Assembly: GCA_963713075.1 (NCBI GenBank)
Contig: CAVQKO010000013.1
Coordinates: 81,487-145,486, forward strand
Origin: an uncultured Chloroflexia bacterium
GTDB lineage: Bacteria; Chloroflexota; Limnocylindria; Limnocylindrales; CSP1-4
Direction of reading: 5' to 3'
DNA length: 64,000 nucleotides
The translations under genes were made by a program, and so were the position numbers. Of this stretch, positions 13,114-33,999 are shown one piece after another; positions within the stretch are counted from its first letter, which is position 1; each line of letters begins with the position of its first letter. The notes beneath the pieces were generated by a model. The model searched no databases, had not been told where the DNA came from, and saw only the letters and a program-made list of their open reading frames with translations.

Positions 13114-13119
13114 CGTCGT

Positions 13120-16721: not shown

Positions 16722-18794
16722 TTACCCGCTGGCGCCCGCGGCGTCGCCCTGGTTGTCGCGCAGACGAAGACGCCGCAGGAGCTGGGCGTTCGCGGCGACG
16801 ATGATCGTCGATAGGCTCATCGCGATCGCTCCGACCGCCATGCCCAGGTCGATCCCCCAGGGAACGAGCACGCCGGCCGCGATCGGGATCGCCACGAGGT
16901 TGTAGCCGGTCGCCCAGACGAGGTTCTGGACCATCTTCCGGTAGGTCGCCCGCGAGAGGACGATCGCGCCCACGACGTCGCGCGGATCGCTCCGCACGAG
17001 CACGATGCCGGCCGACTCGATCGCCACGTCGGTGCCGGCGCCGATCGCGATCCCGACGTCCGCGGTGGCGAGGGCGGGCGCGTCGTTGACCCCGTCGCCG
17101 ACCATGGCGACCTTGCGGCCGCCGGCCTGGAAGCGCTTGACGGCGTCGGCCTTGTCGGCCGGCAGCACCTGGGCCGCCACCTCGTCGATCCCGAGCCTCC
17201 GGGCCACCGAGTCGGCGACCGCCCGGGCGTCGCCGGTGATCATGGCCACCTTCAGGCCCATCGCGTGGAGCCGCTCGACCGCCCCGGCCGACTCCGGGCG
17301 GATCTCGTCCTCGACCGCGAGGGCGCCGATGACCGCGCCGTCGGCGACGACGTGGAGGACGGTCCGGCCCCCCTCCGCCCAGGCCTCGCTCTCGGGCGCC
17401 GGCTGGAGCCCTGCGTCGGCCAGGAGCCGCGGGCCGCCCACGGCCACCTGCCGCCCGCCGACCGTCGCCCGGGCGCCGCGCCCGGCCAGCGCCTCGAACC
17501 CGGTGGCGGCGGCCGGCTCGATGCCGCGCGACCTCGCCCCGGCGACGATCGCCCGGGCGATCGGGTGCTCCGAGTCGGCCTCGACCGAGGCCGCCAGCCG
17601 GAGGAGCCCGGCCTCGTCGGCGCCGCTCACGGCGGCCAGCACCGGCTCGCCCTTCGTGAGGGTGCCCGTCTTGTCGAAGATCACCATGTCGAGCTGGCGC
17701 GCCCGCTCGAGGGCGATCCGGTCCTTGACGAGGAGGCCGTTCCGGGCGCCGAGCGAGGTCGAGATCGCGATGACGAGCGGGATCGCCAGGCCCAGCGCGT
17801 GCGGGCAGGCGATGACGAGCACGGTTGCCGTCCGCACCAGCGCTCCCTGGGGGTCCCCCGCGAGCCACCAGAAGCCGAGCGTGAGCGCGGCGGAGGCGAG
17901 CGCGACGTAGAACAGGATCGCGGCCGCCCGGTCCGCGAGGGCCTGGGCCCGCGATGCGGAGGCCTGCGCCGTCGCGACCATCTGCATGATCCCCGAGAGC
18001 GCCGTCTCCTCCCCGACGGCGGAGACGCGGACCCGCAGGCTGCCGCCCGCGGCGACGGTCCCGGCGATGACCTTCGCCCCCGCCTCCTTGGCGACCGCCC
18101 GGGACTCGCCCGTGATCATCGACTCGTCTGCGTCGGCCGAGCCCTCGGCCACCTCTCCGTCGGCAGGTACCCGTGTGCCCGGCCGGACGAGGACGAGGTC
18201 GCCCACGGCGAGCGCGTCGAGCGGGACCGTCTCGATCCCGCTGTCGGTCACCCGCTCGGCGGTGTCGGGCAGGAGCTCCGCCAGCGCCGAGAGCGCGCCG
18301 CGGGCCTGGGCGATCGAGCGCATCTCGAGCCAGTGGCCGAGCAGCATGATCGTGATGAGCGACGCGAGCTCCCACCAGATCTCGACCTTGAACAGCCCCA
18401 GGGTCCCGGCCCAGCTCGTGGCGAAGGCGACGAGGATCGCGAGGCTGATCAGCGTCATCATCCCGGGCTTGCGGCCGGCGAGCTCGCCGCGCGCGCCGCG
18501 CAGGAACACGAGGCCGCCGTAGAGGAAGACCACCGTGCCCAGGACCGGCGGGATCAGCGCGCCGCCCGGGAACGCAGGGGCGGTGTAGCCGAGCCAGTGC
18601 TCGAGGTCGGGGCTCCAGACCACGACCGGGACCGTCAGTGCCAGGCTCAGCCAGAACTTGTCGCGGAACATCGCGACGGAGTGGCCCTCGTGCCGGTCAT
18701 GCGCAGTGCCGGCTGCCGACGCATGGGCGTTGTGGTCGGGGTCAGCCGGGGCGTTCGTGGCCTGTTCGCGGCGGCCGTGCGTCGTGTGATCCAT
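16722..18794 (-). CDS. P1B-type heavy-metal (copper) translocating ATPase, CopB-like (CPH motif, His-rich N-terminus)
   Basis: Motifs 'DKTGTLT', 'GDGVNDAPAL' and TM6 'CPH'. The N-terminal tail is His-rich (HGRRE...DHNAHASAAGTAHDRHEGH). Confidence 0.9.
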   Translation of the reverse strand: MDHTTHGRREQATNAPADPDHNAHASAAGTAHDRHEGHSVAMFRDKFWLSLALTVPVVVWSPDLEHWLGYTAPAFPGGALIPPVLGTVVFLYGGLVFLRGARGELAGRKPGMMTLISLAILVAFATSWAGTLGLFKVEIWWELASLITIMLLGHWLEMRSIAQARGALSALAELLPDTAERVTDSGIETVPLDALAVGDLVLVRPGTRVPADGEVAEGSADADESMITGESRAVAKEAGAKVIAGTVAAGGSLRVRVSAVGEETALSGIMQMVATAQASASRAQALADRAAAILFYVALASAALTLGFWWLAGDPQGALVRTATVLVIACPHALGLAIPLVIAISTSLGARNGLLVKDRIALERARQLDMVIFDKTGTLTKGEPVLAAVSGADEAGLLRLAASVEADSEHPIARAIVAGARSRGIEPAAATGFEALAGRGARATVGGRQVAVGGPRLLADAGLQPAPESEAWAEGGRTVLHVVADGAVIGALAVEDEIRPESAGAVERLHAMGLKVAMITGDARAVADSVARRLGIDEVAAQVLPADKADAVKRFQAGGRKVAMVGDGVNDAPALATADVGIAIGAGTDVAIESAGIVLVRSDPRDVVGAIVLSRATYRKMVQNLVWATGYNLVAIPIAAGVLVPWGIDLGMAVGAIAMSLSTIIVAANAQLLRRLRLRDNQGDAAGASG

Positions 18795-18821: not shown

Positions 18822-19022
18822 CTACCAGCGGAAGGTGCCGCTCACGAACAGGCCTGTCATCGCGACCATCATGATGATGGCGATCACGGCCGCCGTACCC
18901 CGAACGGCCCTCGAGAGGTGGTACGGGTTCCCGGTCGTCGCCTCGTAGGCGCGAGTCTCCCGATCGTGCTCCTGGCGGTCGTTCCTGTTCCGGCGGCTCT
19001 CGCTCTCGCTCTCGCCGGGCAT
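18822..19022 (-). CDS. small protein with C-terminal transmembrane segment (hypothetical)
   Basis: The ATG at 19022 directly abuts the TAG of the upstream DUF1269 gene (TAGATG), suggesting coupling. The C-terminus is hydrophobic ('AAVIAIIMMVAMTGLFV'). Confidence 0.35.
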   Translation of the reverse strand: MPGESESESRRNRNDRQEHDRETRAYEATTGNPYHLSRAVRGTAAVIAIIMMVAMTGLFVSGTFRW

Positions 19023-19544
19023 CTACCGCGGCCCCCCGGCAGGGGTGGTGACGGCGGCCTTGTCGGCTTCGAGCACGGCGTTGATCTCGTCGGTCGCAGC
19101 AGCCGAGAGCGACGTCTTGATGACCTCGCCGCCGAAGGGCGCCAGCGCGGCCAGCGCCTTGTCCTCGGTCCACTTCTCGAGGAAGAGGACGAGCGCCGCG
19201 GTGCCGGGCTTGAGGACGTCCTGGGTCCGCTGGCGGAAGTCGTCCCTGATGCCCCAGCCGCGCATCGTTCCCAGGACGGCACCCCAGATGCCGCCGGCGA
19301 TGAGGCCGCCAATCGGGAAGAGGAAGAGGAGCCCGAACAGGAGGCCGAGGAAGCCGCCCATCAGCGCTCCAGAGCTCGTGGCCCCGGTCTTGGTCACCAT
19401 CTTGGTCTGGCCGTCGGCGTGCTTGACGACGACGGCGGCCCCGTGCACCTGCACGACCAGGTCGTGCTCGAGCTGGCCCACCACCGCGTAGGCCTTCTCC
19501 GCCGTGGCTTCGTCCGGATAGCCGATGACGACGAGATCTGCCAT
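19023..19544 (-). CDS. DUF1269-family membrane protein
   Basis: ATG at 19544 with GGAGA 7 nt upstream. 'MADLVVIGYPDEATAEKAYAVV...GALMGGFLGLLFGLLFLFPIGGLIAGGIWGAVLG'. Confidence 0.7.
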   Translation of the reverse strand: MADLVVIGYPDEATAEKAYAVVGQLEHDLVVQVHGAAVVVKHADGQTKMVTKTGATSSGALMGGFLGLLFGLLFLFPIGGLIAGGIWGAVLGTMRGWGIRDDFRQRTQDVLKPGTAALVLFLEKWTEDKALAALAPFGGEVIKTSLSAAATDEINAVLEADKAAVTTPAGGPR

Positions 19545-19745
19545 GGACTTGTTCTCCGTACTGGTCGTGCCTGTGGATGCGCGGCGCACGGCTGCGCGCT
19601 TCGCTGCACTGCGGGAGCGCTCCGCCGGCCCGGGCGGCTGGGCGAGTGCCGCGGCCGCCCTGCCTGGCCCCGGTCTGCGCCGGTGGCTGGCGAGATCGCA
19701 CACGCGACTCGCCTCCTCGTCCTTGAGTCTGTCGTCCCGCGCCTT

Positions 19746-19766
19746 GACGTCATGACGGCCCGTCAT
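19746..19766. repeat. palindromic motif copy b1 (GACGTCATGACGGcCCGTCAT)
   Basis: CCGTCATGACGG-type palindrome in the divergent DUF1269 / PRC-barrel intergenic region. Confidence 0.55.
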
Positions 19767-19825
19767 CCGTCGTCGGCCGCTCCCGGTGACGGTGCTGGCC
19801 CGGCCATCCGCGATCGGACCGCCGG

Positions 19826-19848
19826 CCGGATGACGCGTCGTCATGACC
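19826..19848. repeat. palindromic motif copy b2 (ccggATGACGcgtCGTCATGACC)
   Basis: Flanked by the direct 9-mer TCGGACCGC on both sides. It lies about 165 nt upstream of the PRC-barrel start. Confidence 0.55.
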
Positions 19849-20013
19849 GCGCGGAGGTCGGACCGCACAGTGGCGATCGGACCACGGACCGCCCCTGTCT
19901 CCGGATCGAGCCTGCCGTGCTCGACTTGGGCGGTGGGGCGGGACCCTCGGCGGGACGCCGAAACCCATCAGGTGGAGGATCGGCCGCTTCAAACGTGCTC
20001 GGGAGATCCGCAC

Positions 20014-20478
20014 ATGACCATCGAGAAGACCTCAATCCCCTCCGACCCGCCGGAGACGCTCCCCACGCTCAGCCGGCTCGGCGACAACGACAAGACGGTC
20101 TCGGGCGCCGACGAGGACATCCGGGGGCGGACCGTCAGGGACAAGGACGGCCACGAGCTCGGCAAGGTCGACGGCCTCCTGGTCGACGACGTCGAGCAGA
20201 GGGTCCGATTCATGGAGGTCGCGACGGGCGGCTTCCTGGGCCTCGGCGGGAGCAGGACCCTGATTCCGGTCGAGGCGATCACGCGGATCGAGGCCGAGGA
20301 GGTCCACATCAGTCACACCCGCGAGCACGTGGCCGGCGCGCCGCACTACGACCCGCAGCTGACCGTCGTTCAAGACGCGAGCTTCTGGTCGGGCCTGTAC
20401 CCCTACTACGGCTACGGGGTGGGGATGGCCCCGTGGATCACGAGCTGGCGGTCGAGACAGCACGGGCAGGGTCGCTGA
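20014..20478 (+). CDS. PRC-barrel domain protein
   Basis: ATG at 20014 with GGGAGA 8 nt upstream. 'GRTVRDKDGHELGKVDGLLVDDVEQRVRFMEV...LIPVEAI' is PRC-barrel-like. Confidence 0.7.
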   Translation: MTIEKTSIPSDPPETLPTLSRLGDNDKTVSGADEDIRGRTVRDKDGHELGKVDGLLVDDVEQRVRFMEVATGGFLGLGGSRTLIPVEAITRIEAEEVHISHTREHVAGAPHYDPQLTVVQDASFWSGLYPYYGYGVGMAPWITSWRSRQHGQGR

Positions 20479-20536
20479 TCACGCGATCGTGTCTGGGCCG
20501 CGTCGGGGAACAGGGATGCGCAGGAAGAGACAGAGC

Positions 20537-21556
20537 ATGCAGGTCGGACTCGTGGGCCTGGGCAGGATGGGCGCCAGCATGTCGCGGCGATGGCTCGGGG
20601 CGGGCCACACGGTCGTGGGCTACGCGCGCCACGCCGAGACGGTGGACGGGCTGGTCGCCGACGGGGCGATCTCTGCCGGCGCCAGCTCTCTCGAGGGCCT
20701 GGTCGGCCAGCTGACCGCGCCGAGGGTCGTGTGGCTGATGGTGCCGGCTGCGGCCGTCGATGCCACGCTCGCCGACCTGGCGCCGCTCCTGGCGCGGGGC
20801 GACGTCGTCGTGGACGGCGGCAACTCCCACTACGTCGACGACATCCGGCGGTCCGGCGAGCTGGCGACACTGGGGATCAGCTACCTCGACTGCGGAACGA
20901 GCGGCGGCGTCGCGGGCCTCGAGCGCGGGTACTGCCTCATGATCGGCGGCGCGGCGGAGGCGGTGGAGCGCCTCGACCCGGTCTTCCGGGCCCTCGCGCC
21001 CGGCGTGGACGCGGCGCCCCGGACGCCCGGCCGGACCGGCGACCCCGACCCGGCCGAGGACGGCTACCTCCACTGCGGCCCGAGCGGTGCCGGGCACTTC
21101 GTGAAGATGGTCCACAACGGCATCGAGTACGGGCTGATGGCCGCCTACGCCGAGGGCCTCAACATCCTCGCGCACGCCGACGCGGGCCTCCACGAGCGCG
21201 AGGTCAGCGCCGAGGTCACGCCGCTGCGCGACCCGACGCTCTACCAGTACCAGCTGGACATCCCGGCCGTGGCCGAGGTGTGGCGCCGGGGCAGCGTGGT
21301 CGCCTCGTGGCTGCTCGACCTCGCCGCCCAGTCCCTACGGCATAGCAGCGACCTCTCGGACTTCGCGGGCCGCGTCTCGGACTCCGGCGAGGGACGCTGG
21401 ACGAGTATCGCCGCCATCGACGTCGGTGCCCCGGCGCCCGTCCTGACAACGGCGCTCTACGAGCGGTTCTCGTCGAGAGGAGAGGCGGACTTCGCGGACC
21501 GGGTGCTCTCAGCGATGCGCCTCGGCTTCGGCGGCCACGAGGAAGGAAAGGGCTGA
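20537..21556 (+). CDS. 6-phosphogluconate dehydrogenase (decarboxylating), short GndA/YqeC-like form
   Basis: ATG at 20537 with GGAAGAGA upstream. 'MQVGLVGLGRMGASM' dinucleotide-binding fold. 'HFVKMVHNGIEYGLMAAYAEGLNIL' is the 6PGDH C-terminal domain signature. Confidence 0.8.
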   Translation: MQVGLVGLGRMGASMSRRWLGAGHTVVGYARHAETVDGLVADGAISAGASSLEGLVGQLTAPRVVWLMVPAAAVDATLADLAPLLARGDVVVDGGNSHYVDDIRRSGELATLGISYLDCGTSGGVAGLERGYCLMIGGAAEAVERLDPVFRALAPGVDAAPRTPGRTGDPDPAEDGYLHCGPSGAGHFVKMVHNGIEYGLMAAYAEGLNILAHADAGLHEREVSAEVTPLRDPTLYQYQLDIPAVAEVWRRGSVVASWLLDLAAQSLRHSSDLSDFAGRVSDSGEGRWTSIAAIDVGAPAPVLTTALYERFSSRGEADFADRVLSAMRLGFGGHEEGKG

Positions 21557-21615
21557 GGGCGCATGGGCGCGCGTGTGGTCCAGTTCGACGATCACTGGCC
21601 CGGTCCGGTGGCCGC

Positions 21616-24063
21616 ATGAGCGAATCCGACGGCCCGGCTGCGCCCGGCGGGCCCGGCATCCCGCCGACCTGGTCGAGCAGCGACAAGGACGCTGTCGGGA
21701 CGTCGCACTACTCCAGCCGCGTCTGGTTCACGGTCGGGCGAGGCGTCCTCAACGAGGTCTACTGGCCGCACGTCGACCGGCCGCAGGTCCGCGACCTGGG
21801 GTTCATCGTGGCCGACGATGCGGGCTTCTGGAGCGAGGTCAAGCGCGACGCGACACACGAGGTCCGCCACGAGGCCCGGGGTGTGCCCGCGATCACGGCG
21901 GTCCACGCCCACGCCCGCTACCAGCTCACCCTCCGCATCTGCGCGGACGACCACGCCGACGTCGTCCGCATCGAGGCGCGGCTCGAGGATCTCCGGGACC
22001 CGGCCGACCCTGGGCGGACGGCCCACCCGCTGCGGCTCTACCCGCTCCTAGCACCACACCTCGGGTTCACCGGCCTCCACGGCCGCGCATGGGTCGACAC
22101 GCACAAGGGCCGCCCGATGCTGTTCGCCCAGGACGGTCCGTGGGCCCTCGCGCTCGCATCCGACCCTGTCCCGGCTCGCCAGTCCGTCGGCTACGTGGGC
22201 GTTTCGGACGGGTGGCAGGACTTCGCGGCGAACGGCCGCATGACCTGGACGTATTCACGCGCCGGCGCCGGCAACGTGGCGGGCATGACCGAGCTCGCGC
22301 TCGACGGTGGCGCGGCCCAGGTCGCCCTCGCGTTCGCGGCCCGGCCCGAGGAGGCCGGCCTCGAGGCGTCGGCCGCGCTCGCTGGCCCCTTCGAGAGCGC
22401 TTGGCAGGAGTACCTCGGCAACTGGCAGGGATTCGTCCGGACCGTGGTCGATCCGCCCGCAGCCCTGGCGGCGGAGGCGCGCGACCTGTACCTGACCTCG
22501 GCGACCGTGCTGCGGTCGCACCAGGACCGGACCCTGCCCGGCGCGACCGTGGCCAGCCTGTCCATTCCCTGGGGCAACACGCGCAACGACCTCGGCGGCT
22601 ACCACCTGGTCTGGTCACGCGACCTCGTGGAGTCGGCGGGCGCGTTTGTCGCGCTGGGTGCAGCGGCCACGGCCCGACGCACGCTGGCCTACCTCGTCGC
22701 GTCGCAGGAGCCGGACGGCCACTGGCCCCAGAACCAGTGGGTGGACGGGGTGCCCTACTGGACCGGCCTCCAGCTCGACGAGGCCGCCTACCCGCTCCTG
22801 CTCGCGGGGGCGGTCCGCACGGGCGCCGGGCACATGCACGGCAAGACCGGCCCGCACGAGGAGGCATTCCAGAACCTGGTCAGCCAGGCCGCGCTCGACC
22901 GCATGATCGCCCAGGCCGCCGGGTTCATCGCGAGGACCGGACCGGCCACGAGCCAGGACCGCTGGGAGGAGACCGCGGGGCTTACGCCGTCGACCCTCGC
23001 GCCCGTGATCGCCGCCCTGGTGGTGGCTGCCGGACACCTCCCCGAGCCCTCCGCCTCCTACTGCCTGGAGCTTGCGGACGACTGGAACGCCTCGATCGAG
23101 GACTGGACCTATGCCCGCGACACGCGGCTTGCGCGCGAGCAGGGCGTCGACGGCCACTACGTCCGGATCGCCTCGCCAGAGGTGCTCGCGGGGGCTCCGC
23201 TCTCCACGCCGGTCTCGCTCCGCAATCAGCCTCCGGGCGCGGGGACGGTGCCCGGCGACGAGATGGTCGGGACCGACTTCCTCGCCCTCGTGCGGTTCGG
23301 GCTGCGACTCCCGGACGACCCGCGGATCGTGTCGAGCCTCGCGGTCGCGGATGCCCTCCTCCGCACGGAGACGCCGAGCGGGCCGGTCTGGCACCGCTAC
23401 AACGGCGACGGCTACGGCGAGCACGAGGACGGAAGCGCCTACGACGGGACTGGCATCGGACGCGGCTGGCCGCTGCTCGTGGGCGAGCGCGGCCACTACG
23501 AGCTCGACGCCGGGCGGGACCCGGGGCCGTGCCTCGCGGCGATGCAGCGCATGGCGTCGGGCGGGGGGATGCTGCCGGAGCAGGTCTGGGACGCGGACCC
23601 GATCCCCGAGCGCCACCTCGCGCCCGGCCGGCCGGCCGGCTCGGCGATGCCGCTCGCCTGGGCGCACGCGGAATACGTGAAGCTCGTGCGGTCGATCGCC
23701 CTGGGCCATTCGATCGACCGCCCGGAGGCGGCCTGGCGGCGCTACCGGGGCGTCGCCCCGAAGGCCACGCGGGCGACATGGCGGTTCACGGCGCCGCGGC
23801 CCTCGATGCAGGCGGCGCGAACGCTGCGCCTGGAGCTGATGGCTCCTGCTCGTGTCCGGTTCTCGACTGACGGGTGGCGGGCCTGGACAGATCTCGAAGC
23901 GCGGGACACGGGACTCGGCGTGTGGCTGGTCGACGTGCCCGGCTCGGACCGACTGACGCCCGGCGGGGCCGTGGACTTCACGATCTGGTGGCCGGAGGCC
24001 GGCCGATGGGAGGGCCGCGACCTTCGCGTTGAGGTCGTCGCGCCGAGCGGGGATGCCCCGTGA
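21616..24063 (+). CDS. glycoside hydrolase family 15 (glucoamylase / glucodextranase-like) with N-terminal beta-sandwich domain
   Basis: 815 aa. The '(alpha/alpha)6' core 'LVWSRDLVESAGAF...YHRYNGDGYGEHEDGS...GRGWPLLVGERGHYEL' is bacterial GH15. Confidence 0.85.
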   Translation: MSESDGPAAPGGPGIPPTWSSSDKDAVGTSHYSSRVWFTVGRGVLNEVYWPHVDRPQVRDLGFIVADDAGFWSEVKRDATHEVRHEARGVPAITAVHAHARYQLTLRICADDHADVVRIEARLEDLRDPADPGRTAHPLRLYPLLAPHLGFTGLHGRAWVDTHKGRPMLFAQDGPWALALASDPVPARQSVGYVGVSDGWQDFAANGRMTWTYSRAGAGNVAGMTELALDGGAAQVALAFAARPEEAGLEASAALAGPFESAWQEYLGNWQGFVRTVVDPPAALAAEARDLYLTSATVLRSHQDRTLPGATVASLSIPWGNTRNDLGGYHLVWSRDLVESAGAFVALGAAATARRTLAYLVASQEPDGHWPQNQWVDGVPYWTGLQLDEAAYPLLLAGAVRTGAGHMHGKTGPHEEAFQNLVSQAALDRMIAQAAGFIARTGPATSQDRWEETAGLTPSTLAPVIAALVVAAGHLPEPSASYCLELADDWNASIEDWTYARDTRLAREQGVDGHYVRIASPEVLAGAPLSTPVSLRNQPPGAGTVPGDEMVGTDFLALVRFGLRLPDDPRIVSSLAVADALLRTETPSGPVWHRYNGDGYGEHEDGSAYDGTGIGRGWPLLVGERGHYELDAGRDPGPCLAAMQRMASGGGMLPEQVWDADPIPERHLAPGRPAGSAMPLAWAHAEYVKLVRSIALGHSIDRPEAAWRRYRGVAPKATRATWRFTAPRPSMQAARTLRLELMAPARVRFSTDGWRAWTDLEARDTGLGVWLVDVPGSDRLTPGGAVDFTIWWPEAGRWEGRDLRVEVVAPSGDAP

Positions 24064-24124
24064 TGCGTGGCGCAGCCGGCACGGGACCTTGCGCGGAGCG
24101 TGGCCGCGCTGGACTCGGCGTCTG

Positions 24125-25357
24125 ATGGGGGAATCGGCTGTGCGCTCCGCTGGATCCCGCATCCTCGCGGTCAATGGCGGCTCGTCGAGCATCAAGTTCG
24201 CGCTGTTCGACGCGGGCGACGGGCTCCGGCGAATCCTCGAGGGCGGGATCGAGGGGATTGGGCTGCCGGTAACCACCATGCGCGTGACGAGCGAGGACCC
24301 GGGCAACACCTTCGAACGTTCGGTGACGGCGTCGGGCCACACGGCGGCGGTGGGCGTCCTGATGGACTGGATCGAGGAGCGCGACTGGCGTTCCCGGCTG
24401 AGCGCGGTGGGGCACCGCGTCGTCCACGGGGGACCGAAGTACAGCGGGCCGCAGCGGATCACCGCGGCCATGGTCGAGGACCTGCACCAGCTCAGTCCGT
24501 TCGATCCGGACCACCTTCCGGAGGAGATCCTGCTGACCGAGGCGTTCCATCGCCGGTTCCCCGATGTGCCCCAGGTGGCGTGCTTCGACACGGCATTCCA
24601 CCACGACATGCCCCGCGTGGCGCAGCTGCTGCCGATCCCGCGCCGGTTCGAGGCGCAGGGAGTGCGGCGGTACGGCTTCCACGGCCTGTCGTACGCGTTC
24701 CTCGTGGAGGAGCTGACCCGCCTGGCCGGGACGGAGGCGGGCGACGGCCGGGTCATCCTCGCCCACCTCGGCAGTGGCGCGAGCCTGGCGGCCGTGCACC
24801 ACGGGAGGTCCGTGGACACCAGCATGGGCCTCACCCCGACGGCCGGCGTGCCGATGGGCACACGCTCCGGCGATCTCGATCCCGGACTGGCCTGGTACCT
24901 GGCGCGCGCCGACGGGATCGACGCAAAGCAGTTCAACGAGATGGTCAACAGCGAGTCCGGTCTGCTCGGCGTGTCGGAGACCAGCTCGGACATGCGCGAC
25001 CTGCTCCACCGCGAGGCGCACGACGTCCGCGCGGCCGAAGCGGTGGCGCTCTTCTGCTACCAGGTCAAGAAGTGGATCGGCGCATTCGCCGCCGCCCTCG
25101 GCGGCCTCGACGCGCTCGTGTTCGCGGGCGGCATCGGGGAGAACGCGCCCACGGTCCGCGCCCGGATCTGCGACGGGCTGGGCTTCCTGGGCGTTGTCCT
25201 CGCCGACCAGCCCAACGCCGCCAGCGAGAGCGTGATTTCCGCAGGGGCGAGCCGGGTCGCGGTCCGGGTCATCCACACGGACGAGGAACGGATGATCGCC
25301 AAGCTGGTCTGCGACGTCCTCGGTTTCGGCCCAGCGAAGGAGCGAGTGGACCAATGA
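24125..25357 (+). CDS. ackA: acetate kinase
   Basis: '[16 protein letters not shown]', 'VGHRVVHGG' and '[11 protein letters not shown]' motifs. The start is ATG 24125, or GTG 24140 with GGGGGA 7 nt upstream. Confidence 0.85.
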
Positions 25358-27723
25358 CGAGTCAGCCGATCTCCCCGGACGTGCTCGCGAGGATGGATGC
25401 GTACTGGCGCGCGGCCAACTACCTCTCGGTCGGCCAGATCTACCTCTACGACAATCCGCTCCTGAGGGAGCCGCTCAGGCTCTCGCACGTGAAGCCACTG
25501 GTGGTCGGGCACTGGGGCACGACCCCCGGCCAGAACTTCATCTACGTGCACCTCAACCGTGTCATCAAGAAGTACGACCTCGACATGTTCTATGTCGCGG
25601 GTCCCGGGCACGGTGGGCCGGCGATCGTCGGCAACGTGTACCTCGAGGGCACCTGGAGCGAGGTCTACCCGAGCATCACCCAGGACGAGGCCGGCCTGCG
25701 GAAGCTGTTCACGCAGTTCTCGTTCCCCGGCGGCATCTCCAGCCACGTCGCGCCGACAACACCCGGGTCCATCCACGAGGGCGGCGAGCTCGGGTACTCG
25801 CTCAGCCACGCCTTCGGCGCCGCATTCGACAACCCGGGGCTCGTCGTCGCCTGCGTGATCGGCGACGGGGAGGCCGAGACCGGGCCGCTCGCGACCGCCT
25901 GGCAGTCCACCAAGTTCCTGAGCCCGATCTCCGACGGCGCGGTGCTCCCGATCCTCCACCTCAACGGCTACAAGATCAGCAACCCGACCGTCCTCGCCCG
26001 GATCGAGCACGAGGAGCTTGAGCAGTTCCTCCGCGGCTGCGGCTGGATGCCGTACTTCGTCGAGGGCGATGACCCCGACGCGATGCACGAGCTGATGGCG
26101 AGCACGCTCGACGACGCGATCGAGGAGATCGGGCGCATCCAGGCCCACGCCCGGACCACCAACAATTCGACCCGCCCACGCTGGCCGATGATCGTCCTGC
26201 GCTCGCCCAAGGGCTGGACGGGTCCCAAGGTGGTTGACGGCCTGCAGATTGAGGGCACCTTCCGTGCGCACCAGGTGCCGCTCCTGGTCGATGCCGCGCA
26301 TCCCGGGCACGTGGAGCAGCTCGAGGCGTGGCTGAAGAGCTACCGGCCCGAGGAGCTGTTCGACTCGGACGGTCGGCTCAAGCCGGAGCTCGCCGAGCTC
26401 GCGCCGATCGGCGACCGGCGGATGGGCGCCAACCCCCACGCCAACGGCGGCGCGCTGCTCCGCGACCTGCGCATGCCGGACTTCGGGGACCACGCCGTGG
26501 CCGTGCCCGCCCCGGGTGCCGTCGCGGCCCAGGACACGCTCGTCCTCGGCGGCTTCCTGCGCGATGTGGCCCAGCTGAACCTCGAGCAGCGCAACTTCCG
26601 CGTGTTCGGTCCCGATGAGACGGTGTCGAACCTCCTGCAGGCGGTCTTCGAGGTCACCAACCGCCAGTGGGAGCTCCCGGTCGAGACGAGCGACGAGTTT
26701 CTCGCTGCCGAGGGGCAGGTGCACGACTCCATGCTCAGCGAGCACCAGTGCGAGGGCTGGCTGGAGGGGTATCTCCTGACCGGCCGGCACGGCCTCTTCA
26801 ACTGCTACGAGGCGTTCGTCCGCATCGTCGACTCCATGTTCAGCCAGCACGCCAAGTGGCTCAAAGTCTGCGCCGAGCTGCCCTGGCGCCGCGACATCTC
26901 GTCGTTGAACTACGTCCTCGCATCCCATGTCTGGCAGCAGGACCACAACGGGTTCACGCACCAGGACCCGGGCTTCCTCGACCACGTGGTGAACAAGAAG
27001 GCGAGCATCGTCCGCGTCTACCTGCCGCCGGATGCGAACTGCCTGCTGTCGGTGATGGACCACTGTCTGCGAAGCCGCAACTACGTCAACGTCGTCGTGG
27101 CCGGCAAGCACGCCCTGCCCCAGTGGCTCTCGATGGACGAGGCCGTGATCCACTGCACCGAGGGGATCGGCATCTGGCCGTGGGCCAGCAACGACCAGGA
27201 TGGCGGGCCGGACGTCGTCATGGCCTGCTGCGGCGACACGCCCACCCTCGAGGTCCTGGCCGCGGTGTCGATCCTGCATGAGCACCTGCCCGACCTGAAG
27301 GTCCGCGTCGTCAACGTCGTCGACCTGATGAAGCTGCAGTCGAGCACCGAGCACCCGCACGGGTTGAGCGACCTGGACTACGACGCCCTCTTCACGCGGG
27401 ACAAGCACATCATCTTCGCCTTCCACGGCTACCCCTGGCTGATCCACCGCCTCACCTATCGCCGGACGAACCGCAACCTGCACGTCCGCGGGTACATCGA
27501 GGAGGGCACGATCACCACGGCCTTCGACGTGCGCGTGCAGAACAAGCTCGACCGGTTCCACCTCGTCACCGACGTCGTGGACCGGCTGCCCGGCTTGGGC
27601 GCCCGGGGCGACTACCTCAAGCAGCTCATGGCGGACAAGCTCGTCGAGCACAAGGTGTACATCAACACGCACGGGGAGGACCTCCCGGAGGTCCGGAACT
27701 GGACCTGGGGCGACCCCTCGTGA
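25354..27723 (+). CDS. xfp: xylulose-5-phosphate/fructose-6-phosphate phosphoketolase
   Basis: ATGA overlap with ackA. The 789-aa product has '[20 protein letters not shown]', '[20 protein letters not shown]' and '[10 protein letters not shown]', which are hallmark XFP blocks. Confidence 0.95.
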
Positions 27724-28742
27724 AGGCCGATGTGCTCGCCGAGACGGCGAAGGCCCTTGTCAACGACCACAAGGGCCTGCTGGCGATCGACGAGAGCAAT
27801 CCGACCTGCAACACACGCTTCGCGGCTGCCGGGATCCCGCAGACCGAGGCGGCCAGGCGCGCGTATCGCGAACTGATCGTGACCACGCCGGGTCTGAGCG
27901 AGTCCATCAGCGGTCTGATCCTCTACGACGAGACGATCCGCCAGCGGGCCACGGACGGCACGCCCCTGGTCAAGGTCGTCATCGACGCGGGGCTCATCCC
28001 CGGCATCAAGGTCGACACCGGCGCCAAGCCGCTGGCGGGTCATCCCGGCGAGCGCATCACCGAGGGCCTCGACGGGCTGCGCGAGCGACTCGTCGACTAC
28101 GCCCGGCTGGGCGCCCGGTTCGCCAAGTGGCGTGCCGTGATCGCCATCGGCGTCGGGATGCCGAGCCTGGCCTGCATCGAGGCGAACGCCCATGCGCTGG
28201 CTCGCTACGGCGCGATGTGTCAGGAGGCTGGCCTCGTCCCCGTCATCGAGCCCGACGTGCTCATGGCGGGCGAACACAGCCTCGAGCGGTGCGCCGAAGT
28301 GACCGAGGACGTCCTGCGGGCGGTGTTCATCGGGCTGCACGCACAGGGCGTGGCGCTCGAGGGCATGATCCTCAAGCCCAGCATGGTGCTGCCGGGTCTC
28401 GCCGCGGCCACGCAGCGCCCGGTCGACGAGGTCGCCGACGCGACCGTGACCTGCCTCCTGCGAGCCGTCCCGGCTGCCGTTCCGGGCGTCGCCTTCCTGT
28501 CCGGCGGGCAACCGGCCGAGCTTGCCACGGCACGGCTGAACGCGATGAACACGCGGCACCGGGCCCGCCTGCCCTGGGCGCTGGCGTTCTCGTTCGCCCG
28601 GGCCATCCAGCAGCCGGCCCTCGAGATCTGGCGCGGCGACGAAGCCAACGTGTCGGCGGCCCAGCGCGCCCTCGCGCATCGAGCCCGGTGCAACAGCGCC
28701 GCGCGCCGCGGCGAGTACACAGCCGCGATGGAGAGTGCATGA
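27720..28742 (+). CDS. class I fructose-bisphosphate aldolase
   Basis: GTGA overlap with xfp. '[15 protein letters not shown]', 'ILYDETIRQ' and '[11 protein letters not shown]' (Schiff-base Lys region) are class I FBA signatures. Confidence 0.85.
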
Positions 28743-29755
28743 GCATCCCCACACGGGCCGATGCCGCAGCCCGGGAGCCCCTCTACCCCCTGCGCTTCGA
28801 GCCGATCTACGAGTACCGACTGTGGGGTGGCCGGCGGCTCGCTGACCTGCTCACGGCACCGCTCCCGGGCGACGGCCCGATCGGAGAGGCGTGGGTCCTG
28901 AGCGACCGCGACGACCACGCGAGCCGGGTCGCCAACGGGCCGCTCAAGGGGAGAACCCTCCGCGAGGTGCTGACGGCGTGGCCCGAGCCGATGCTGGGGA
29001 CGCTCGCCGGCCGGTTCTGCCGCTTCCCGCTCCTGCTCAAGTTCCTCGACGCCCGCGAGCTCCTCTCGGTCCAGGTCCACCCCGCAGATACGCAGGCGGA
29101 CGTGCTGCCAGCCGGGGAGACCGGCAAGACCGAGGCATGGGTCGTCCTCGAGGCGGCCCCGGAGAGTCGGATCTATGCGGGCCTCAAGCCCGGCACGACC
29201 GCCGACGACCTGCGACAGGCGGCCGCGAGCGGGGCCGTCGCGGACCGCCTCGCCTCCTTCGCCCCGAGGCCCGGCGATGCCGTCTTCCTGCAGGCCGGCA
29301 CCGTTCACACGCTGGGCGGCGTCGTGGTGTTCGAGGTCCAGCAGAACAGCGACGTCACGTTCCGCCTGTACGACTGGGACCACGTGGATCCGACGACCGG
29401 GCAGCCCCGTCCCCTCCAGGTCGATCGGGCACTGCGCTCTGTCGACTTCTCCCAGCATGCGCTCGGCCCGGTGGCACCGGTGGTGGAGGCGACGACACCG
29501 GTCGAGCGCATGCGCCTCTTCGATTGCGAGCAGTTCAAGGTCTGGCGCCTGCGCGGCGGCTCACCGTTCAGCGTCGGCGAGCCGGGCCTGCCGCGTGCGC
29601 TCGTCTGCCTCGAGGGATCAGGGAATCTGGGGCATTCCGGCGTGATGCACCCGGTGGGCCGCGGCGACGTCTGGCTCCTGCCGGCAGTGGTCGGGGCCTG
29701 CGAGTTGCTGCCCGACGGGAACGTGACGGTGCTCGAAGTGGGGCTCCCCGAATGA
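28739..29755 (+). CDS. manA: mannose-6-phosphate isomerase, class I (cupin)
   Basis: ATGA overlap with the upstream gene. 'GEAWVLSDRDDHASRV', 'LLLKFLDARELLSVQVHP', 'KTEAWVVLEA', 'GTVHTLGGVVVFEVQQNSDVTFRLYDWD'. Confidence 0.8.
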   Translation: MSIPTRADAAAREPLYPLRFEPIYEYRLWGGRRLADLLTAPLPGDGPIGEAWVLSDRDDHASRVANGPLKGRTLREVLTAWPEPMLGTLAGRFCRFPLLLKFLDARELLSVQVHPADTQADVLPAGETGKTEAWVVLEAAPESRIYAGLKPGTTADDLRQAAASGAVADRLASFAPRPGDAVFLQAGTVHTLGGVVVFEVQQNSDVTFRLYDWDHVDPTTGQPRPLQVDRALRSVDFSQHALGPVAPVVEATTPVERMRLFDCEQFKVWRLRGGSPFSVGEPGLPRALVCLEGSGNLGHSGVMHPVGRGDVWLLPAVVGACELLPDGNVTVLEVGLPE

Positions 29756-30507
29756 AGCAACTGATTGTCTTCGATCTCGACGGCACGCTTGCCGAGAGCA
29801 AGTCGTCCGTGGGGCCCGCGGTGGCGGGCTTGATCCACGACCTCCTCGGGATCGTCAAGGTGGCCGTCATCTCGGGGGGCAACTGGCCGCAGTTCGAGGA
29901 GCAGGTGCTCGCCGGCCTCCCGTGCGACGAGCGGCTGGCGAACCTGTCCCTGCTCCCGACGTGTGGGACGAAGTTCCTCCGCTACGACGACGGCAAGTGG
30001 GCCGAGATCTACTCGGAGGACCTCAGCCCGGCCGAGCGGCGCAAGATCATCAGCTCGCTGGAGCAGGCGTTCGACACCGCGGGGCTCACCGTCGAGCGGG
30101 TCTGGGGCGAGGTGGTGGAGGACAGGGGAAGCCAGGTCACCTTCTCCGCCCTTGGGCAGCAGGCCCCCCTCGACGCCAAGACCGCCTGGGACCCCGACTT
30201 CGCCAAGCGCCGGAAGATCGTCGGGATCCTCGACACGCTGATCCCCGAGTTCTCCGTCCGGATGGGCGGCGCGACCTCGATCGACGTCACCAAGCCCGGC
30301 ATCGACAAGGCCTACGGGATCCGCAAGCTCCGCGACACGCTCGGCATTCCGCTCAGCGACATGATCTTCATCGGCGACGCCCTGTTCCCGGGCGGGAACG
30401 ACTATCCGGCCGAGGAGGCAGGGGTGGACTCGATCCCGGTGAAAGGGCCCGAGGAGACCAGGCTGGTGGTCCAGACGATCATCGCGTGCCTGGCTCCCGA
30501 ACCATGA
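29752..30507 (+). CDS. HAD-IIB family hydrolase, phosphomannomutase-like
   Basis: ATGA overlap. 'FDLDGTL', 'ISGG', 'GDALFPGGNDY' and a cap resembling eukaryotic-type phosphomannomutase or sugar phosphatases. Confidence 0.7.
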   Translation: MKQLIVFDLDGTLAESKSSVGPAVAGLIHDLLGIVKVAVISGGNWPQFEEQVLAGLPCDERLANLSLLPTCGTKFLRYDDGKWAEIYSEDLSPAERRKIISSLEQAFDTAGLTVERVWGEVVEDRGSQVTFSALGQQAPLDAKTAWDPDFAKRRKIVGILDTLIPEFSVRMGGATSIDVTKPGIDKAYGIRKLRDTLGIPLSDMIFIGDALFPGGNDYPAEEAGVDSIPVKGPEETRLVVQTIIACLAPEP

Positions 30508-30604
30508 TCGCACCCGCGCCCGCCAGGACAGGCTTCGAGCTCCACCGCCTGGGGACTGTGATGGAGCTTGCTCGTACGGCGGCCAGAACAGGAAGGTCGC
30601 GATC

Positions 30605-33295
30605 ATGAGTCCGAAGGCAGTCGTGGCCGAGGCGAAGCCGGCGGCCACGCCGGGATCGAAGGACGACCTCAAGACGCTCCCCATGCCGGAGCTGCTGGCG
30701 AAGCTCGGGTCCTCGGCCGACGGCCTCACGCAGGCCGAGGCCCAGAAGCGCCTGGCCCAGTACGGGCCCAACGAGATCGAGGAGAAGAAGGACAACCCGT
30801 TCCTGAAGTTCCTGACCTACTTCTGGGGCCCGATCCCGTGGATGATCGAGGCGGCGGTCGTGCTCTCGGCGCTGGCCCAGCACTGGCCCGACTTCTTCAT
30901 CATCCTGCTGCTGCTGCTGGCCAACGCCGTGGTCGGATTCTGGGAGGAGCACCAGGCCGGCAACGCGATCGCGGCCCTGAAGGCCAAGCTCGCCGTCGAG
31001 GCCACGGCGAGGCGCGACGGGACGTGGGTGACCCCGCCGGCGCGCGAGCTGGTGCCGGGCGACGTCATCCGCCTGCGCCTGGGCGCGATCGTGCCCGCGG
31101 ACGCCCGCCTGCTCGCCGGCGATCCCGTCGAGGTGGACCAGTCCGCGCTGACAGGGGAATCGCTGCCGGCGACGCGCAAGCCCGGCGAGGCCGTGTTCTC
31201 GGGGTCGATCGTGCGCCAGGGCGAGATCGACGCGATGGTCTACGCCACCGGGGCGAACACCTACTTCGGCAGGACCGCGCAGCTCGTGCAGGAGGCGCAG
31301 ACCATCAGCCACTTCCAGCGGGCGGTGCTCAAGATCGGGGACTACCTGATCGTCCTCGCGGTGGCGCTCGTCGCCATCATCATCTTGGTCGCGCTGTTCC
31401 GCGGCGACCATATGCTCACCACGCTGCAGTTCGCGCTCGTGCTGACCGTCGCCGCGATCCCGGTGGCGATGCCGACGGTGCTGTCGGTGACGATGGCCGT
31501 CGGCGCGCGCAAGCTGGCCGGGCGCGAGGCGATTGTCACCCGCCTCGCGGCGATCGAGGAGCTCGCGGGCGTGGACGTCCTGTGCGCGGACAAGACCGGC
31601 ACGCTCACCCAGAACAAGCTGACGCTCGGCGACCCGTTCAGCGTGAGCGGCGTCCCCGGCGACCAGGTGGTCCTCTGCGCCGCGCTGGCGTCACGCGCCG
31701 AGGACAAGGACACCATCGACCTCGCCGTGCTGGGCGGGATCACCGACGACCAGGCCCTCAAGGACTACACGGTGGTCCACTTCCAGCCGTTCGACCCGGT
31801 CCACAAGCGCACCGAGGCCACCGTCAAGGGCCCAGACGGCAAGCAGTTCCGCGTCGCCAAGGGCGCGCCGCAGGTGATCCTGGAGATGTCAGCCGACGCT
31901 GGGAAGGTGAAGACTGCGGTCGACGGGGCGGTCGACGAGTTCGCGGCCCGGGGCTTCCGGTCGCTCGGCGTCGCCAGGGCGGGCAGTCGCGGCGACTGGC
32001 ACTTCATCGGCGTGCTGCCCCTCTTCGATCCGCCGCGCGACGAGGCCAAGGCGACCATCGCGAGCGCCCGCCAGATGGGCGTGGCGGTCAAGATGGTGAC
32101 GGGAGACGCCATCGCCATCGCCCGGGAGACGGCCGGCAAGCTCGGCATGGGGACCGACATCCTCGACGCCGGCGGCTTCGGCGACGCCAAGCACCACGAG
32201 ACCGCGCAGCTCGCGGCGTCGATCGAGCACGCCGACGGCTTCGCCCAGGTGTTCCCCGAGCACAAGTTCCACATCATCGACGTCCTGCAGCGGGGCGGCC
32301 ACATCGTGGGTATGACGGGCGACGGGGTGAACGACGCCCCAGCCCTCAAGAAGGCCGACTGCGGGATCGCCGTCTCGGGCGCCACGGACGCGGCCCGCGC
32401 GGCGGCCTCCATCGTGCTCCTGACGCCCGGCCTCTCGGTGATCATCGACGCGATCAGGGAGAGCCGCCGCATCTTCCAGCGGATGAACAGCTACGCGATC
32501 TACCGGATCGCCGAGACGCTGCGCGTCCTGCTGTTCATGACGCTCGCGATCCTGGTGTTCAACTTCTACCCGGTCACCGCGGTGATGATCGTGATGCTGG
32601 CGCTGCTCAACGACGGCGCCATCCTGTCCATCGCCTACGACAACGTCCACTACAAGCTCAAGCCCGAGGCGTGGAACATGCGCCTCGTGCTGGGCGTCGC
32701 CACCGTCCTCGGCGTCGCGGGCGTCGTCGCCGCGTTCGGCCTGTTCTATCTCGGCGAGCGCGTCTTCAACCTCGACCGCGACCACATCCAGACGCTGATG
32801 TACCTCAAGCTGTCGGTAGCCGGCCACCTGACGATCTTCCTCACCCGCACGCGCGGCCCGTTCTGGTCCATCCGCCCCGCGAAGGTGCTGCTCCTCGCCG
32901 TGTTCGGCACGCAGGCGGTGGCGACGCTGATCGCCGTGTTCGGCATCTTCATGACGCCGCTCGGCTGGGGCTGGGCGCTGTTCGTGTGGGCCTACGCGCT
33001 TGCCTGGTTCCTCGTCAACGACCGTGTGAAGCTGCTCGCGTACCGGATCCTCGATCCCACGAAGGAGCCGCTGCTGGCCAAGCGGCCGCGAGATCGGCGG
33101 CCGCAGATCGCCGCACGGGCATACGAGCTGTACCAGCAGAGAGTCCGCGGCGAAGGCCAGGCAGATCGAGACTGGCTCCAGGCGGAGCGCGAGGTGGGCG
33201 CGCCCGACGCCGAGGCGAGCCGCCCGGCCGAGCCCGCGCCCGACGCGACGCCTGACCGCCCGACCGAGCCTGCGCCAAAGGCCACAGCTCGTTGA
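30605..33295 (+). CDS. P3A-type plasma-membrane H+-ATPase-like P-type ATPase with C-terminal DUF2934-like tail
   Basis: GGAAGG upstream. 'CADKTGTLTQNKLT', 'GDGVNDAPALKKADCGIAV' and ten transmembrane segments. The C-terminal 'ARAYELYQQRVRGEGQADRDWLQAEREV' resembles DUF2934. Confidence 0.9.
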   Translation: MSPKAVVAEAKPAATPGSKDDLKTLPMPELLAKLGSSADGLTQAEAQKRLAQYGPNEIEEKKDNPFLKFLTYFWGPIPWMIEAAVVLSALAQHWPDFFIILLLLLANAVVGFWEEHQAGNAIAALKAKLAVEATARRDGTWVTPPARELVPGDVIRLRLGAIVPADARLLAGDPVEVDQSALTGESLPATRKPGEAVFSGSIVRQGEIDAMVYATGANTYFGRTAQLVQEAQTISHFQRAVLKIGDYLIVLAVALVAIIILVALFRGDHMLTTLQFALVLTVAAIPVAMPTVLSVTMAVGARKLAGREAIVTRLAAIEELAGVDVLCADKTGTLTQNKLTLGDPFSVSGVPGDQVVLCAALASRAEDKDTIDLAVLGGITDDQALKDYTVVHFQPFDPVHKRTEATVKGPDGKQFRVAKGAPQVILEMSADAGKVKTAVDGAVDEFAARGFRSLGVARAGSRGDWHFIGVLPLFDPPRDEAKATIASARQMGVAVKMVTGDAIAIARETAGKLGMGTDILDAGGFGDAKHHETAQLAASIEHADGFAQVFPEHKFHIIDVLQRGGHIVGMTGDGVNDAPALKKADCGIAVSGATDAARAAASIVLLTPGLSVIIDAIRESRRIFQRMNSYAIYRIAETLRVLLFMTLAILVFNFYPVTAVMIVMLALLNDGAILSIAYDNVHYKLKPEAWNMRLVLGVATVLGVAGVVAAFGLFYLGERVFNLDRDHIQTLMYLKLSVAGHLTIFLTRTRGPFWSIRPAKVLLLAVFGTQAVATLIAVFGIFMTPLGWGWALFVWAYALAWFLVNDRVKLLAYRILDPTKEPLLAKRPRDRRPQIAARAYELYQQRVRGEGQADRDWLQAEREVGAPDAEASRPAEPAPDATPDRPTEPAPKATAR

Positions 33296-33312
33296 CCGTG
33301 AAGGCTGAGACG

Positions 33313-33930: not shown

Positions 33931-33999
33931 GGGGCACGCTCGGCCCGTACGACGCAAAGGCCGGGACTCCGCCGGTCGTGATCGGAAAGGAAGGCCACC

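Follow-up and report, generated by a model that had tools for sequence, protein, structure and literature searches.

The window analysed here is a 64,000-nt stretch of contig CAVQKO010000013.1 (positions 81,487 to 145,486 of the forward strand, assembly GCA_963713075.1) from an uncultured Chloroflexia bacterium. Its + strand carries a run of ten genes at window positions 20014-33930, which begins with a PRC-barrel protein gene and ends with a HAD-IA hydrolase gene. Between these two are coded a 6-phosphogluconate dehydrogenase (6PGDH), a glycoside hydrolase of family GH15, acetate kinase (AckA), phosphoketolase (Xfp), a class I fructose-bisphosphate aldolase (FBA), a mannose-6-phosphate isomerase (PMI)-like protein, a phosphohexomutase-like HAD-IIB protein, and a P3A-type H+-ATPase. 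Genes were called from frame plots of GC content at the third codon position (GC3) and from Pfam and NCBIfam profile matches, at a window GC content of 67-77%. The genes of the run, and the gene divergent from it, are as follows.

19023-19544, - strand: DUF1269 protein (PF06897), divergent from the PRC gene and sharing with it a motif-bearing intergenic region
20014-20478, + strand: PRC-barrel protein (PF05239), first gene of the run
20537-21556, + strand: short-form decarboxylating 6PGDH of the gnd_rel type (TIGR00872, 397 bits, cutoff 297)
21616-24063, + strand: GH15 protein of 815 aa (PF09137 Glucodextran_N and PF00723 Glyco_hydro_15)
24140-25357, + strand: acetate kinase AckA (PF00871 full length, 367 bits; TIGR00016, 362 bits, cutoff 293)
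25354-27723, + strand: phosphoketolase Xfp (XFP_N/XFP/XFP_C; NF003619, 1405 bits, cutoff 962)
27720-28742, + strand: class I FBA (PF00274; NF033379, 497 bits, cutoff 250)
28739-29755, + strand: type I PMI-like protein, Bacillus type (PF20511; TIGR00218, 109.7 bits, cutoff 116.2)
29752-30507, + strand: HAD-IIB phosphohexomutase-like protein (TIGR01484 above cutoff)
30605-33295, + strand: P3A-type H+-ATPase of 896 aa with C-terminal DUF2934 (TIGR01647, 1052 bits, cutoff 615)
33313-33930, + strand: HAD-IA hydrolase (phosphatase; PF00702/PF13419), last gene of the run

Gene junctions and a palindromic motif

An initial annotation of this DNA had proposed an operon of seven same-strand genes at 20537-30507. 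The seven genes and their + strand orientation were borne out by the GC3 frame plots and the Pfam/NCBIfam matches, and family models agreed with the products named, including the short-form 6PGDH-like gene that precedes GH15; the HAD-IIB product was refined. The proposed limits were too narrow, as the PRC gene lies 58 nt upstream of 6PGDH, and the P3A ATPase gene begins 97 nt downstream of HAD-IIB and is followed by HAD-IA. Overlaps of 4 nt were found where they had been reported, with ATGA at 25354, 28739, and 29752 and GTGA at 27720, and the genes from AckA through HAD-IIB are tightly coupled translationally. The remaining junctions have gaps of 58 nt (PRC/6PGDH), 59 nt (6PGDH/GH15), 76 nt (GH15/AckA), 97 nt (HAD-IIB/ATPase), and 17 nt (ATPase/HAD-IA). 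AckA starts with GTG at 24140, preceded by the ribosome-binding site GGGGGAA; it does stand close behind the GH15 stop, at the measured 76 nt and not at the previously estimated distance of about 60 nt.

Simple scans of 19000-35500 found no sigma-70-like promoter and no intrinsic terminator, and scanning for a SigF/SigB-type promoter (GTTT-N13-18-GGGTA) gave zero matches. Rfam models at gathering thresholds and a tRNA scan, both run over the whole window, identified nothing. RNA folding of four internal and terminal intergenic regions gave nothing significant save a weak signal in the ATPase leader. This leader of 97 nt (window 30500-30610) folds slightly better than its shuffles (z = -2.06, 6 of 200); CAUGAUCGC pairs with GCGAUCAUG over the start codon, and the fold could occlude translation initiation.

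The palindrome ATGACG-N3-CGTCAT was recognized as the core of a 19-21 nt operator-like element with the consensus ggATGACG-N3-CGTCATGACG. The 15-nt core, allowing at most one mismatch, has nine sites in the window against 0.12 expected, and none of 100 shuffles reached nine. All nine sites are intergenic, while about 80% of the window is coding. Their positions are as follows.

9879-9893: upstream of the ORF at 9942
15529-15543 and 15724-15738: on both sides of the ABC/GH130 divergent region, upstream of the importer operon listed below
19752-19766 and 19830-19844: two oppositely oriented copies (region 19752-19848) in the divergent gap between the DUF1269 and PRC genes, the copy at 19752 facing the DUF1269 gene
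35285-35299: upstream of a cupin gene
37184-37198, 37897-37911, and 38090-38104: three sites positioned after an OmpR-type regulator

The genes at the second of these positions are an importer operon on the opposite strand.

11096-12145, - strand: GH130 beta-mannoside phosphorylase-like protein (Pfam)
12211-13995, - strand: permeases of the ABC sugar importer (Pfam)
14045-15238, - strand: binding protein of the same importer (Pfam)

Wherever orientation could be judged, the asymmetric extension of the motif faces the adjacent gene. The exact core occurs in only three (L085, L166, and L167) of the 167 related loci fetched for comparison, and these three come from the closest relatives; there, too, the sites adjoin P3A, PRC, Transgly_assoc, and other small stress-type genes. 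No copy lies at the internal gaps of the operon. A single regulated promoter for the run is supported by this arrangement, because the motif sits ahead of the first gene and at none of the gaps behind it. The pair at 19752 and 19830 is the candidate site from which all genes of the + strand run would be regulated. It is predicted that the 6PGDH/GH15 genes and the pump genes are transcribed together with the AckA-to-HAD-IIB core. The shared motif supports a putative co-regulation of the run with the GH130 importer operon, and its sites seem to bound a stress/energy island about 28 kb long (about 9.9-38.1 kb).

Two paralogous genes for small membrane proteins of the Transgly_assoc family (GlsB/YeaQ-type) at 10508-10777 and 35840-36106 each lie about 0.5-0.6 kb downstream of a motif site, and the family was also found beside the P3A pump in L166 and in L085. 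The GC content of the window dips to 0.67-0.70 at 26001-28000 and 30001-34000, over Xfp and the ATPase, compared with 0.72-0.75 in the flanks (GC3 is at least 0.93); either a slight remnant of foreign origin or plain amino-acid constraint could explain the dip. Downstream of the island, 40275-54474 codes for a homogentisate-type aromatic catabolism cluster and a leucine/isovalerate (liu-like) cluster. An acetyl-CoA-synthetase-like gene there (52582-54474, - strand) could re-assimilate acetate. GH1 and GH3 genes are also present in the window.

Predicted functions of the gene products

Xfp is full length, with XFP_N, XFP, and XFP_C matched at E values from 1e-85 to 1e-179; looking up its exact sequence gave no recorded match. 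The ATP-inhibition motif of SeXPK-type phosphoketolase is PW-X2-H-X3-YR-X7-H-X-R-X31-R (PMC10365998). All eight motif residues are present in the Xfp of the window, yet the spacer is X6 instead of X7, and the exact motif was found in 22 of 80 related Xfp proteins. Judged from these residues, ATP gating of the window Xfp is plausible.

The ATPase is a P3A plasma-membrane-type H+-ATPase and not a generic cation pump, as judged from its closest structural relatives and from its score on TIGR01647, the model for plasma-membrane proton-efflux (type IIIA) ATPases. Its best PDB matches are Arabidopsis AHA2 (5ksd, 700 bits, covering pump residues 21-809 of 896) and fungal Pma1 (648 and 642 bits), followed by MgtA with 292 bits. 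The phosphorylation motif DKTGT (CADKTGTLT) is kept, together with the aligned equivalents of AHA2 Asn106, Arg655, and Asp684: LLANAVV stands at the Asn106 region, ETLRVLL is aligned with ITIRIVF, and ALLNDGA with AILNDGT. These three are proton-path positions in AHA2 numbering (PMC10654040). Proton specificity and ATP-driven export by the window pump are predicted on these grounds. A DUF2934 domain lies at residues 831-864 (window 33095-33196) and is carried by nearly all of the 120 best homologs; it could be a bacterial regulatory domain, eukaryotic P3A pumps having unrelated regulatory tails. The family is large, with at least 8000 proteins at E of 1e-100 or lower, the top 120 being 81-88% identical. 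A 2023 review placed prokaryotic P3A pumps mainly in methanogens, with function undetermined, and a proton-exporting P3A pump suits pH homeostasis (PMC10654040). The abundance of the family and the genomic contexts described below run against the distribution given in that review and offer a handle on function.

Another P-type ATPase, coded upstream at 16722-18671 on the - strand, was considered as a second proton pump and rejected; it is of the P1B heavy-metal/copper type. It lacks an N-terminal metal-binding domain and adjoins a small cupredoxin-like ORF (16403-16669), and homologs of it (43-49% identity) are found near Xfp in six other loci.

The GH15 protein has an N-domain and a catalytic domain. 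Thermoanaerobacterium glucoamylase 1lf6 (406 bits) and Arthrobacter glucodextranase 1ug9 (386 bits) were its best PDB matches. The RWEE and EQVW motifs, which we take to mark the positions of the catalytic Glu residues, are conserved in the alignment to 1lf6. This alignment begins at residue 8 and no leader peptide is apparent, so the enzyme is probably cytoplasmic. On the equivalog model for glucan 1,4-alpha-glucosidase (TIGR01535), it scores 606 bits, below the cutoff of 742, so glucoamylase, glucodextranase, and other exo-alpha-glucosidases are all possible; a cytoplasmic exo-alpha-glucosidase of glucoamylase type is the probable assignment.

The HAD-IIB product had been called phosphomannomutase-like. 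The class of phosphohexomutases stands, and the protein is of mutase type (alpha-phosphoglucomutase or phosphomannomutase), not phosphatase-like, according to its closest relatives. The nearest of these is the HAD-type alpha-phosphoglucomutase of Lactococcus lactis (4bnd, E 1.5e-43), and eukaryote-type phosphomannomutases match far more weakly, at E 1e-14 or weaker. The PMI-like protein narrowly misses the TIGR00218 cutoff; PMI of Bacillus subtilis (1qwr, E 2e-41) is its best PDB match. For the GH130 protein of the importer operon, the best PDB and NCBIfam matches are beta-1,2-oligomannan and beta-1,2-mannobiose phosphorylases, and this operon is a probable source of mannose-1-phosphate. GH130 also comes after PMI/HAD-IIB in L005, L024, L035, and L138. 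The mannose genes recognized earlier form part of a recurrent PMI/HAD-mutase/GH130 block, which is read not as a side branch but as a fructose-6-phosphate feeder to Xfp: GH130 would give mannose-1-phosphate, and the mutase and PMI would convert it to fructose-6-phosphate.

Gene neighbourhoods in related loci

The Xfp protein was compared with one genome per species, and the best 80 of at least 597 matches (72-84% identity) were taken, which is not a random sample. Neighbours within 10 kb of Xfp were identified by tblastn with the window proteins and by all-against-all clustering of ORFs. Record titles of these loci span Acidobacteriota, Chloroflexota, Verrucomicrobiota, Actinomycetota, Cyanobacteria (Nostoc), Gemmatimonadota, Bacteroidota, Planctomycetota, and several proteobacterial classes. 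The GC content of the loci varies from 0.34 to 0.72 and the GC3 of Xfp tracks it (0.28-0.93), with the protein still 72-84% identical; the hosts are thus truly diverse and the genes adapted to them. The initial annotation had asked for a check of gene neighbourhoods in relatives. The gene set is conserved across lineages, and its members co-occur repeatedly in various orders, as the counts near Xfp show.

P3A ATPase (up to 82% identity): 29/80
AckA (at least 50% identity): 26/80
class I FBA: 19/80
PPK2: 17/80, of which 14 with a P3A pump
transaldolase-PGI fusion (Tal-PGI): 14/80
HAD-IA: 13/80
alpha-glucan phosphorylase: 12/80
PRC-barrel protein: 12/80
SPFH protein: 12/80
GH130: 9/80
G6PD: 9/80
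YflT stress protein: 8/80
HAD-IIB: 8/80
PMI: 6/80
short 6PGDH: 3-4 of 80
GH15: 1/80 (L003)

Homologs of the 6PGDH (65% identity) are those near Xfp in L008, L016, and L071. Usp and ribosome-hibernation genes accompany the gene set as well, in addition to PPK2, YflT, and PRC-barrel genes.

In seven of the 80 Xfp loci, all without P3A, the position of the P3A gene immediately after the Xfp block is taken by a same-strand operon for a rotary ATPase. Its gene order is beta-epsilon-AtpQ-a-b-alpha; the "alternate F1F0 ATPase" models TIGR03305, TIGR03306, and TIGR03321 score above cutoffs, and AtpQ is matched by PF09527. According to this order and these scores, it is an N-ATPase. P3A occurs in 29/80 loci, N-ATPase in 7/80, and both together in 0/80 (hypergeometric P = 0.036). 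N-ATPases are described as ion pumps that consume ATP, are present as a second copy, and have been acquired by lateral transfer (PMC2881411, PMC5376962); the one from Burkholderia pseudomallei is proton-specific (PMC5376962). No N-ATPase operon (atpDCQRBEFAG type) is present in the window. As two unrelated ATP-driven pumps alternate at one position, the pump would belong functionally to the module, and this is the strongest single argument for such a link.

The second comparison was centred on AckA, with metagenome contigs of 75-80% identity; counts refer to loci with enough flanking sequence, here called informative. The order of ackA upstream of xfp had been described as unusual. It is not, as same-strand Xfp follows AckA in 40 of 46 informative loci, and at a distance of 500 nt or less in 27 of the 46. 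In the Xfp-centred genome loci, AckA also stands mostly upstream of Xfp. Adjacency of AckA and Xfp is already known in cyanobacteria (PMC5862535). The order is typical of this Xfp clade, and the operon itself is well formed and mostly ordinary. FBA comes after Xfp in 10 of 16 informative metagenome loci and in 19/80 genome loci, and HAD-IA homologs lie directly upstream of AckA in 30 of 66 informative metagenome loci and in 13/80 genome loci.

The presence of a glucoamylase in the operon had likewise been taken as unusual. It is uncommon (1/80 Xfp loci and 4/80 AckA-centred loci) without being unique, as GH15 recurs in L003, L086, L104, L157, and L162. In L104, L157, and L162 (3 of 32 informative metagenome loci, 38-46% identity), it is upstream of AckA, and in L086 downstream. 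Where GH15 sits in the window, related loci usually have an alpha-glucan phosphorylase, found in 12/80 Xfp loci and upstream of AckA in 10/32 informative metagenome loci. The tie between GH15 and AckA did not hold among the closest GH15 relatives (81-88% identity), whose conserved partner is G6PD or 6PGDH: G6PD in L082 (with a 4-nt overlap) and L083, and 6PGDH in L085, while neither partner accompanies GH15 in L081 and L084. Neither AckA nor intact Xfp was found in the flanks of these five homologs, L081-L085 (10 kb; L083 is a short contig). Proteins that cluster with the window GH15 are labelled Candidatus Limnocylindrales (Chloroflexota), on which ground an actinobacterial origin, suggested by a GC content of 72%, was rejected.

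Locus L085, from a related metagenome-assembled genome (MAG), has 6PGDH-GH15 intact and, side by side, short remnants of HAD-IA and of the Xfp C-terminus. The remnants at 21806-22143 and 22174-22409 match window positions 33334-33671 and 27487-27723, respectively, and suggest that this relative has a decayed or rearranged module.

As a reciprocal check, five contexts of P3A pumps with DUF2934 (L166-L170) were sampled, and four of them carry parts of the module. L166 has the pump with no module genes nearby. L167 has the order P3A-GlgP-PPK2-PRC-HAD, L168 has P3A...YflT-RpiB-Tal-GlgP-HAD-AckA, and L170 has Xfp-FBA-P3A-PPK2 followed by two Usp genes. In L169 (12830-17911), PRC, a ribosome hibernation factor, YflT, and short fragments of Xfp (XFP_N) and GlgP (DUF3417) lie by the P3A gene, with transposases nearby, so that the module copy in this locus seems to be degraded. 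L166 and L167 belong to one MAG (ERZ25039495) with two paralogs of P3A with DUF2934, each 87% identical to the window pump; the pump of L167 overlaps glucan phosphorylase by 4 nt. Because the contexts of AckA, GH15, and P3A vary in this way, the window is seen as a juxtaposition of three mobile sub-modules, namely PRC-6PGDH-GH15, AckA through HAD-IIB, and P3A-HAD.

Proposed role and comparison with known systems

We lean, by a modest preference, towards the view that 20014-33930 is a mosaic representative of a "reserve-to-proton-pump" module that has spread laterally, and that it is probably transcribed as a single regulated unit. The probable role of the module would be to draw on sugar reserves so that cells stay energised once respiration fails. 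Cytoplasmic GH15 would free glucose from alpha-glucan, as glucan phosphorylase would in other hosts, and the GH130 phosphorylase elsewhere in the island may work with the HAD-type phosphohexomutase and PMI to supply further hexose units. These units would reach fructose-6-phosphate or, via 6PGDH, xylulose-5-phosphate, and Xfp would split either one to give acetyl-phosphate, from which AckA would make acetate and ATP with ADP. The C3/C4 remnants (erythrose-4-phosphate and triose-phosphate) would be recycled by the class I aldolase (by Tal-PGI in other hosts) and possibly by the HAD phosphatases, as in the bifid shunt or non-oxidative glycolysis, with ATP formed at little or no net reductant. 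The P3A pump would then spend ATP on proton export and hold membrane potential and cytoplasmic pH under hypoxia, starvation, or acid stress. The direction of flux in this scheme is predicted from gene content. The earlier suggestion that storage glucan is mobilised when energy is limiting agrees with the comparative context, with glucan phosphorylase at the GH15 position and PPK2, stress, and hibernation partners.

Several points weigh against this reading. Internal promoters could lie in the gaps of 59, 76, and 97 nt, and 6PGDH-GH15 may be a separate transcript, because 6PGDH or G6PD and GH15 form a unit of their own in the closest GH15 relatives. No glucokinase, transketolase, or transaldolase is encoded in the run according to Pfam and NCBIfam, and 6PGDH yields reduced cofactor, a poor fit to a strictly redox-neutral scheme. 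The Xfp motif spacer is one residue shorter than in the validated motif. Neither pump lies within 10 kb in 44/80 Xfp loci, so the Xfp-pump link is frequent and not obligatory. The 80 loci were taken from the head of a ranking and include many MAGs, whose taxon labels are approximate. The inducing condition is suggested solely by the families of the neighbouring genes. To go by their sample identifiers, many metagenome contigs may come from peat and wetland, and acid tolerance, in place of anoxia, could then be the selective condition.

An ordinary growth-phase catabolic operon would use the same enzymes, all of which are from known sugar catabolism, to take imported alpha-glucans or mannosides through a heterolactic or bifid route, and the ATPase would be a neighbouring housekeeping pump. 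The ABC sugar importer and the GH130, GH1, and GH3 genes of the window agree with such an operon, 6PGDH suits the classical oxidative entry to the phosphoketolase pathway, and the 44/80 Xfp loci with no pump within 10 kb also favour it. It is nevertheless unlikely, since GH15 is leaderless and its usual substitute is a glycogen-type phosphorylase, which points to internal reserves; the recurrent partners are stress and dormancy proteins and PPK2, not sugar transporters; and the alternation of two pumps, together with the module parts in four of five sampled P3A contexts, speaks against a casual neighbour.

Somewhat less probable still is a module for acid tolerance, in which the pump would expel protons at low external pH with ATP from Xfp/AckA, and oxygen or energy limitation would not be the trigger. 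Many of the genome matches (among the best 80 of at least 597) are Acidobacteriota, the suitability of a P3A proton exporter for pH homeostasis (PMC10654040) agrees with it, and the B. pseudomallei N-ATPase was proposed to help survival in acidic phagosomes (PMC5376962). However, acetic acid as the end product raises the acid load, PPK2, glycogen phosphorylase, hibernation factor, and Usp indicate energy limitation or dormancy over acid specifically, and the module is also found in hosts not labelled as acidophiles (Nostoc, Spirosoma, and Terrimonas). Chance juxtaposition of three separately transcribed units with unrelated roles (PRC-6PGDH-GH15, AckA through HAD-IIB, and P3A-HAD) is improbable: the gaps of 59, 76, and 97 nt do coincide with the sub-module borders, close relatives keep 6PGDH/G6PD-GH15 without AckA-Xfp and P3A without Xfp, and an independent fold of the ATPase leader is possible (z = -2.06), but these families are found together again and again, in many lineages and in varied order, GH15 is again upstream of AckA in L104, L157, and L162, no terminator-like sites were found in the scanned region, and the motif stands only ahead of the first gene and at none of the internal gaps.

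Beyond the reserve-to-proton-pump reading of this one locus, a broader proposal is offered more tentatively, and we hold it to be rather doubtful than probable: bacterial P3A pumps in general may be the output device of a mobile survival module, in which ATP-gated Xfp fermentation of reserve glycans (and polyphosphate via PPK2) would power membrane energisation and de-acidification in non-respiring cells, with the N-ATPase interchangeable. If the reading holds, the very large family of bacterial P3A pumps (at least 8000 close homologs) would gain a physiological role that can be tested, and aerobic soil and peat bacteria would have a way to hold membrane potential through anoxic or starved spells. 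It would also mean that a multi-enzyme energy module moves between phyla with a swappable feeder (GH15 or glucan phosphorylase; GH130, mutase, and PMI) and a swappable pump (P3A or N-ATPase).

All the enzymes are from known families. The conserved link of Xfp/AckA to a P3A or N-type pump, together with reserve-mobilising enzymes and PPK2, is undescribed in the literature searched, where no paper was found that connects phosphoketolase to an N-ATPase, to a P-type ATPase (P3A included), or to a gene cluster for dormancy or hypoxia. The closest known system is XPK-ACK of Synechococcus elongatus PCC 7942, which, according to PMC10365998 (citing Chuang & Liao 2021), provides ATP for long-term survival in dark, anaerobic, osmotic stress, with XPK inhibited by ATP. 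Phosphoketolase and acetate kinase of that system give ATP from stored carbohydrate, as is proposed here, and the enzyme is active when ATP drops (PMC10365998). This locus differs in that GH15, 6PGDH, FBA, PMI, HAD mutase, and a P3A pump are coded along with Xfp and AckA in a single run on one strand; linkage of a pump to cyanobacterial XPK-ACK was not found described in the literature searched.

Low oxygen induces the lxa locus of Burkholderia cenocepacia and the mycobacterial DosR regulon, which cells need in order to persist under anoxia; both group Usp and other stress proteins with acetate kinase and a P-type ATPase that transports cations (PMC3721108). Phosphoketolase is not in the main text of the lxa paper (PMC3721108), and lxa is only a loose analogue. 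The DosR box (GGGAC-N4-GTCCC core) is absent here, with 4 one-mismatch matches against 8.3 expected and none near the operon, and the lineage of the window has a different palindrome.

The window pump resembles AHA2 and Pma1 in its near full-length match (700 and 648 bits, respectively), in the phosphorylation motif, and in the equivalents of Asn106, Arg655, and Asp684. Unlike them, it is bacterial and has no eukaryotic regulatory termini, with the C-terminal DUF2934 instead. The N-ATPase (atpDCQRBEFAG) is likewise an ATP-consuming pump, at the same position by Xfp in seven related loci; it is rotary, multi-subunit, and structurally unrelated to the P-type pump, and the window does not carry it.

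The bifid shunt and the heterolactic pathway of bifidobacteria and lactic acid bacteria lead from fructose-6-phosphate or xylulose-5-phosphate through acetyl-phosphate to acetate and ATP, as would the enzymes of this locus; 6PGDH would correspond to their oxidative entry, and Tal-PGI is found in related loci. The run in the window differs in having neither transketolase nor transaldolase. Furthermore, those are growth pathways of fermenters, whereas the genes described here travel with stress proteins, reserve enzymes, PPK2, and a pump across hosts of varied GC content.

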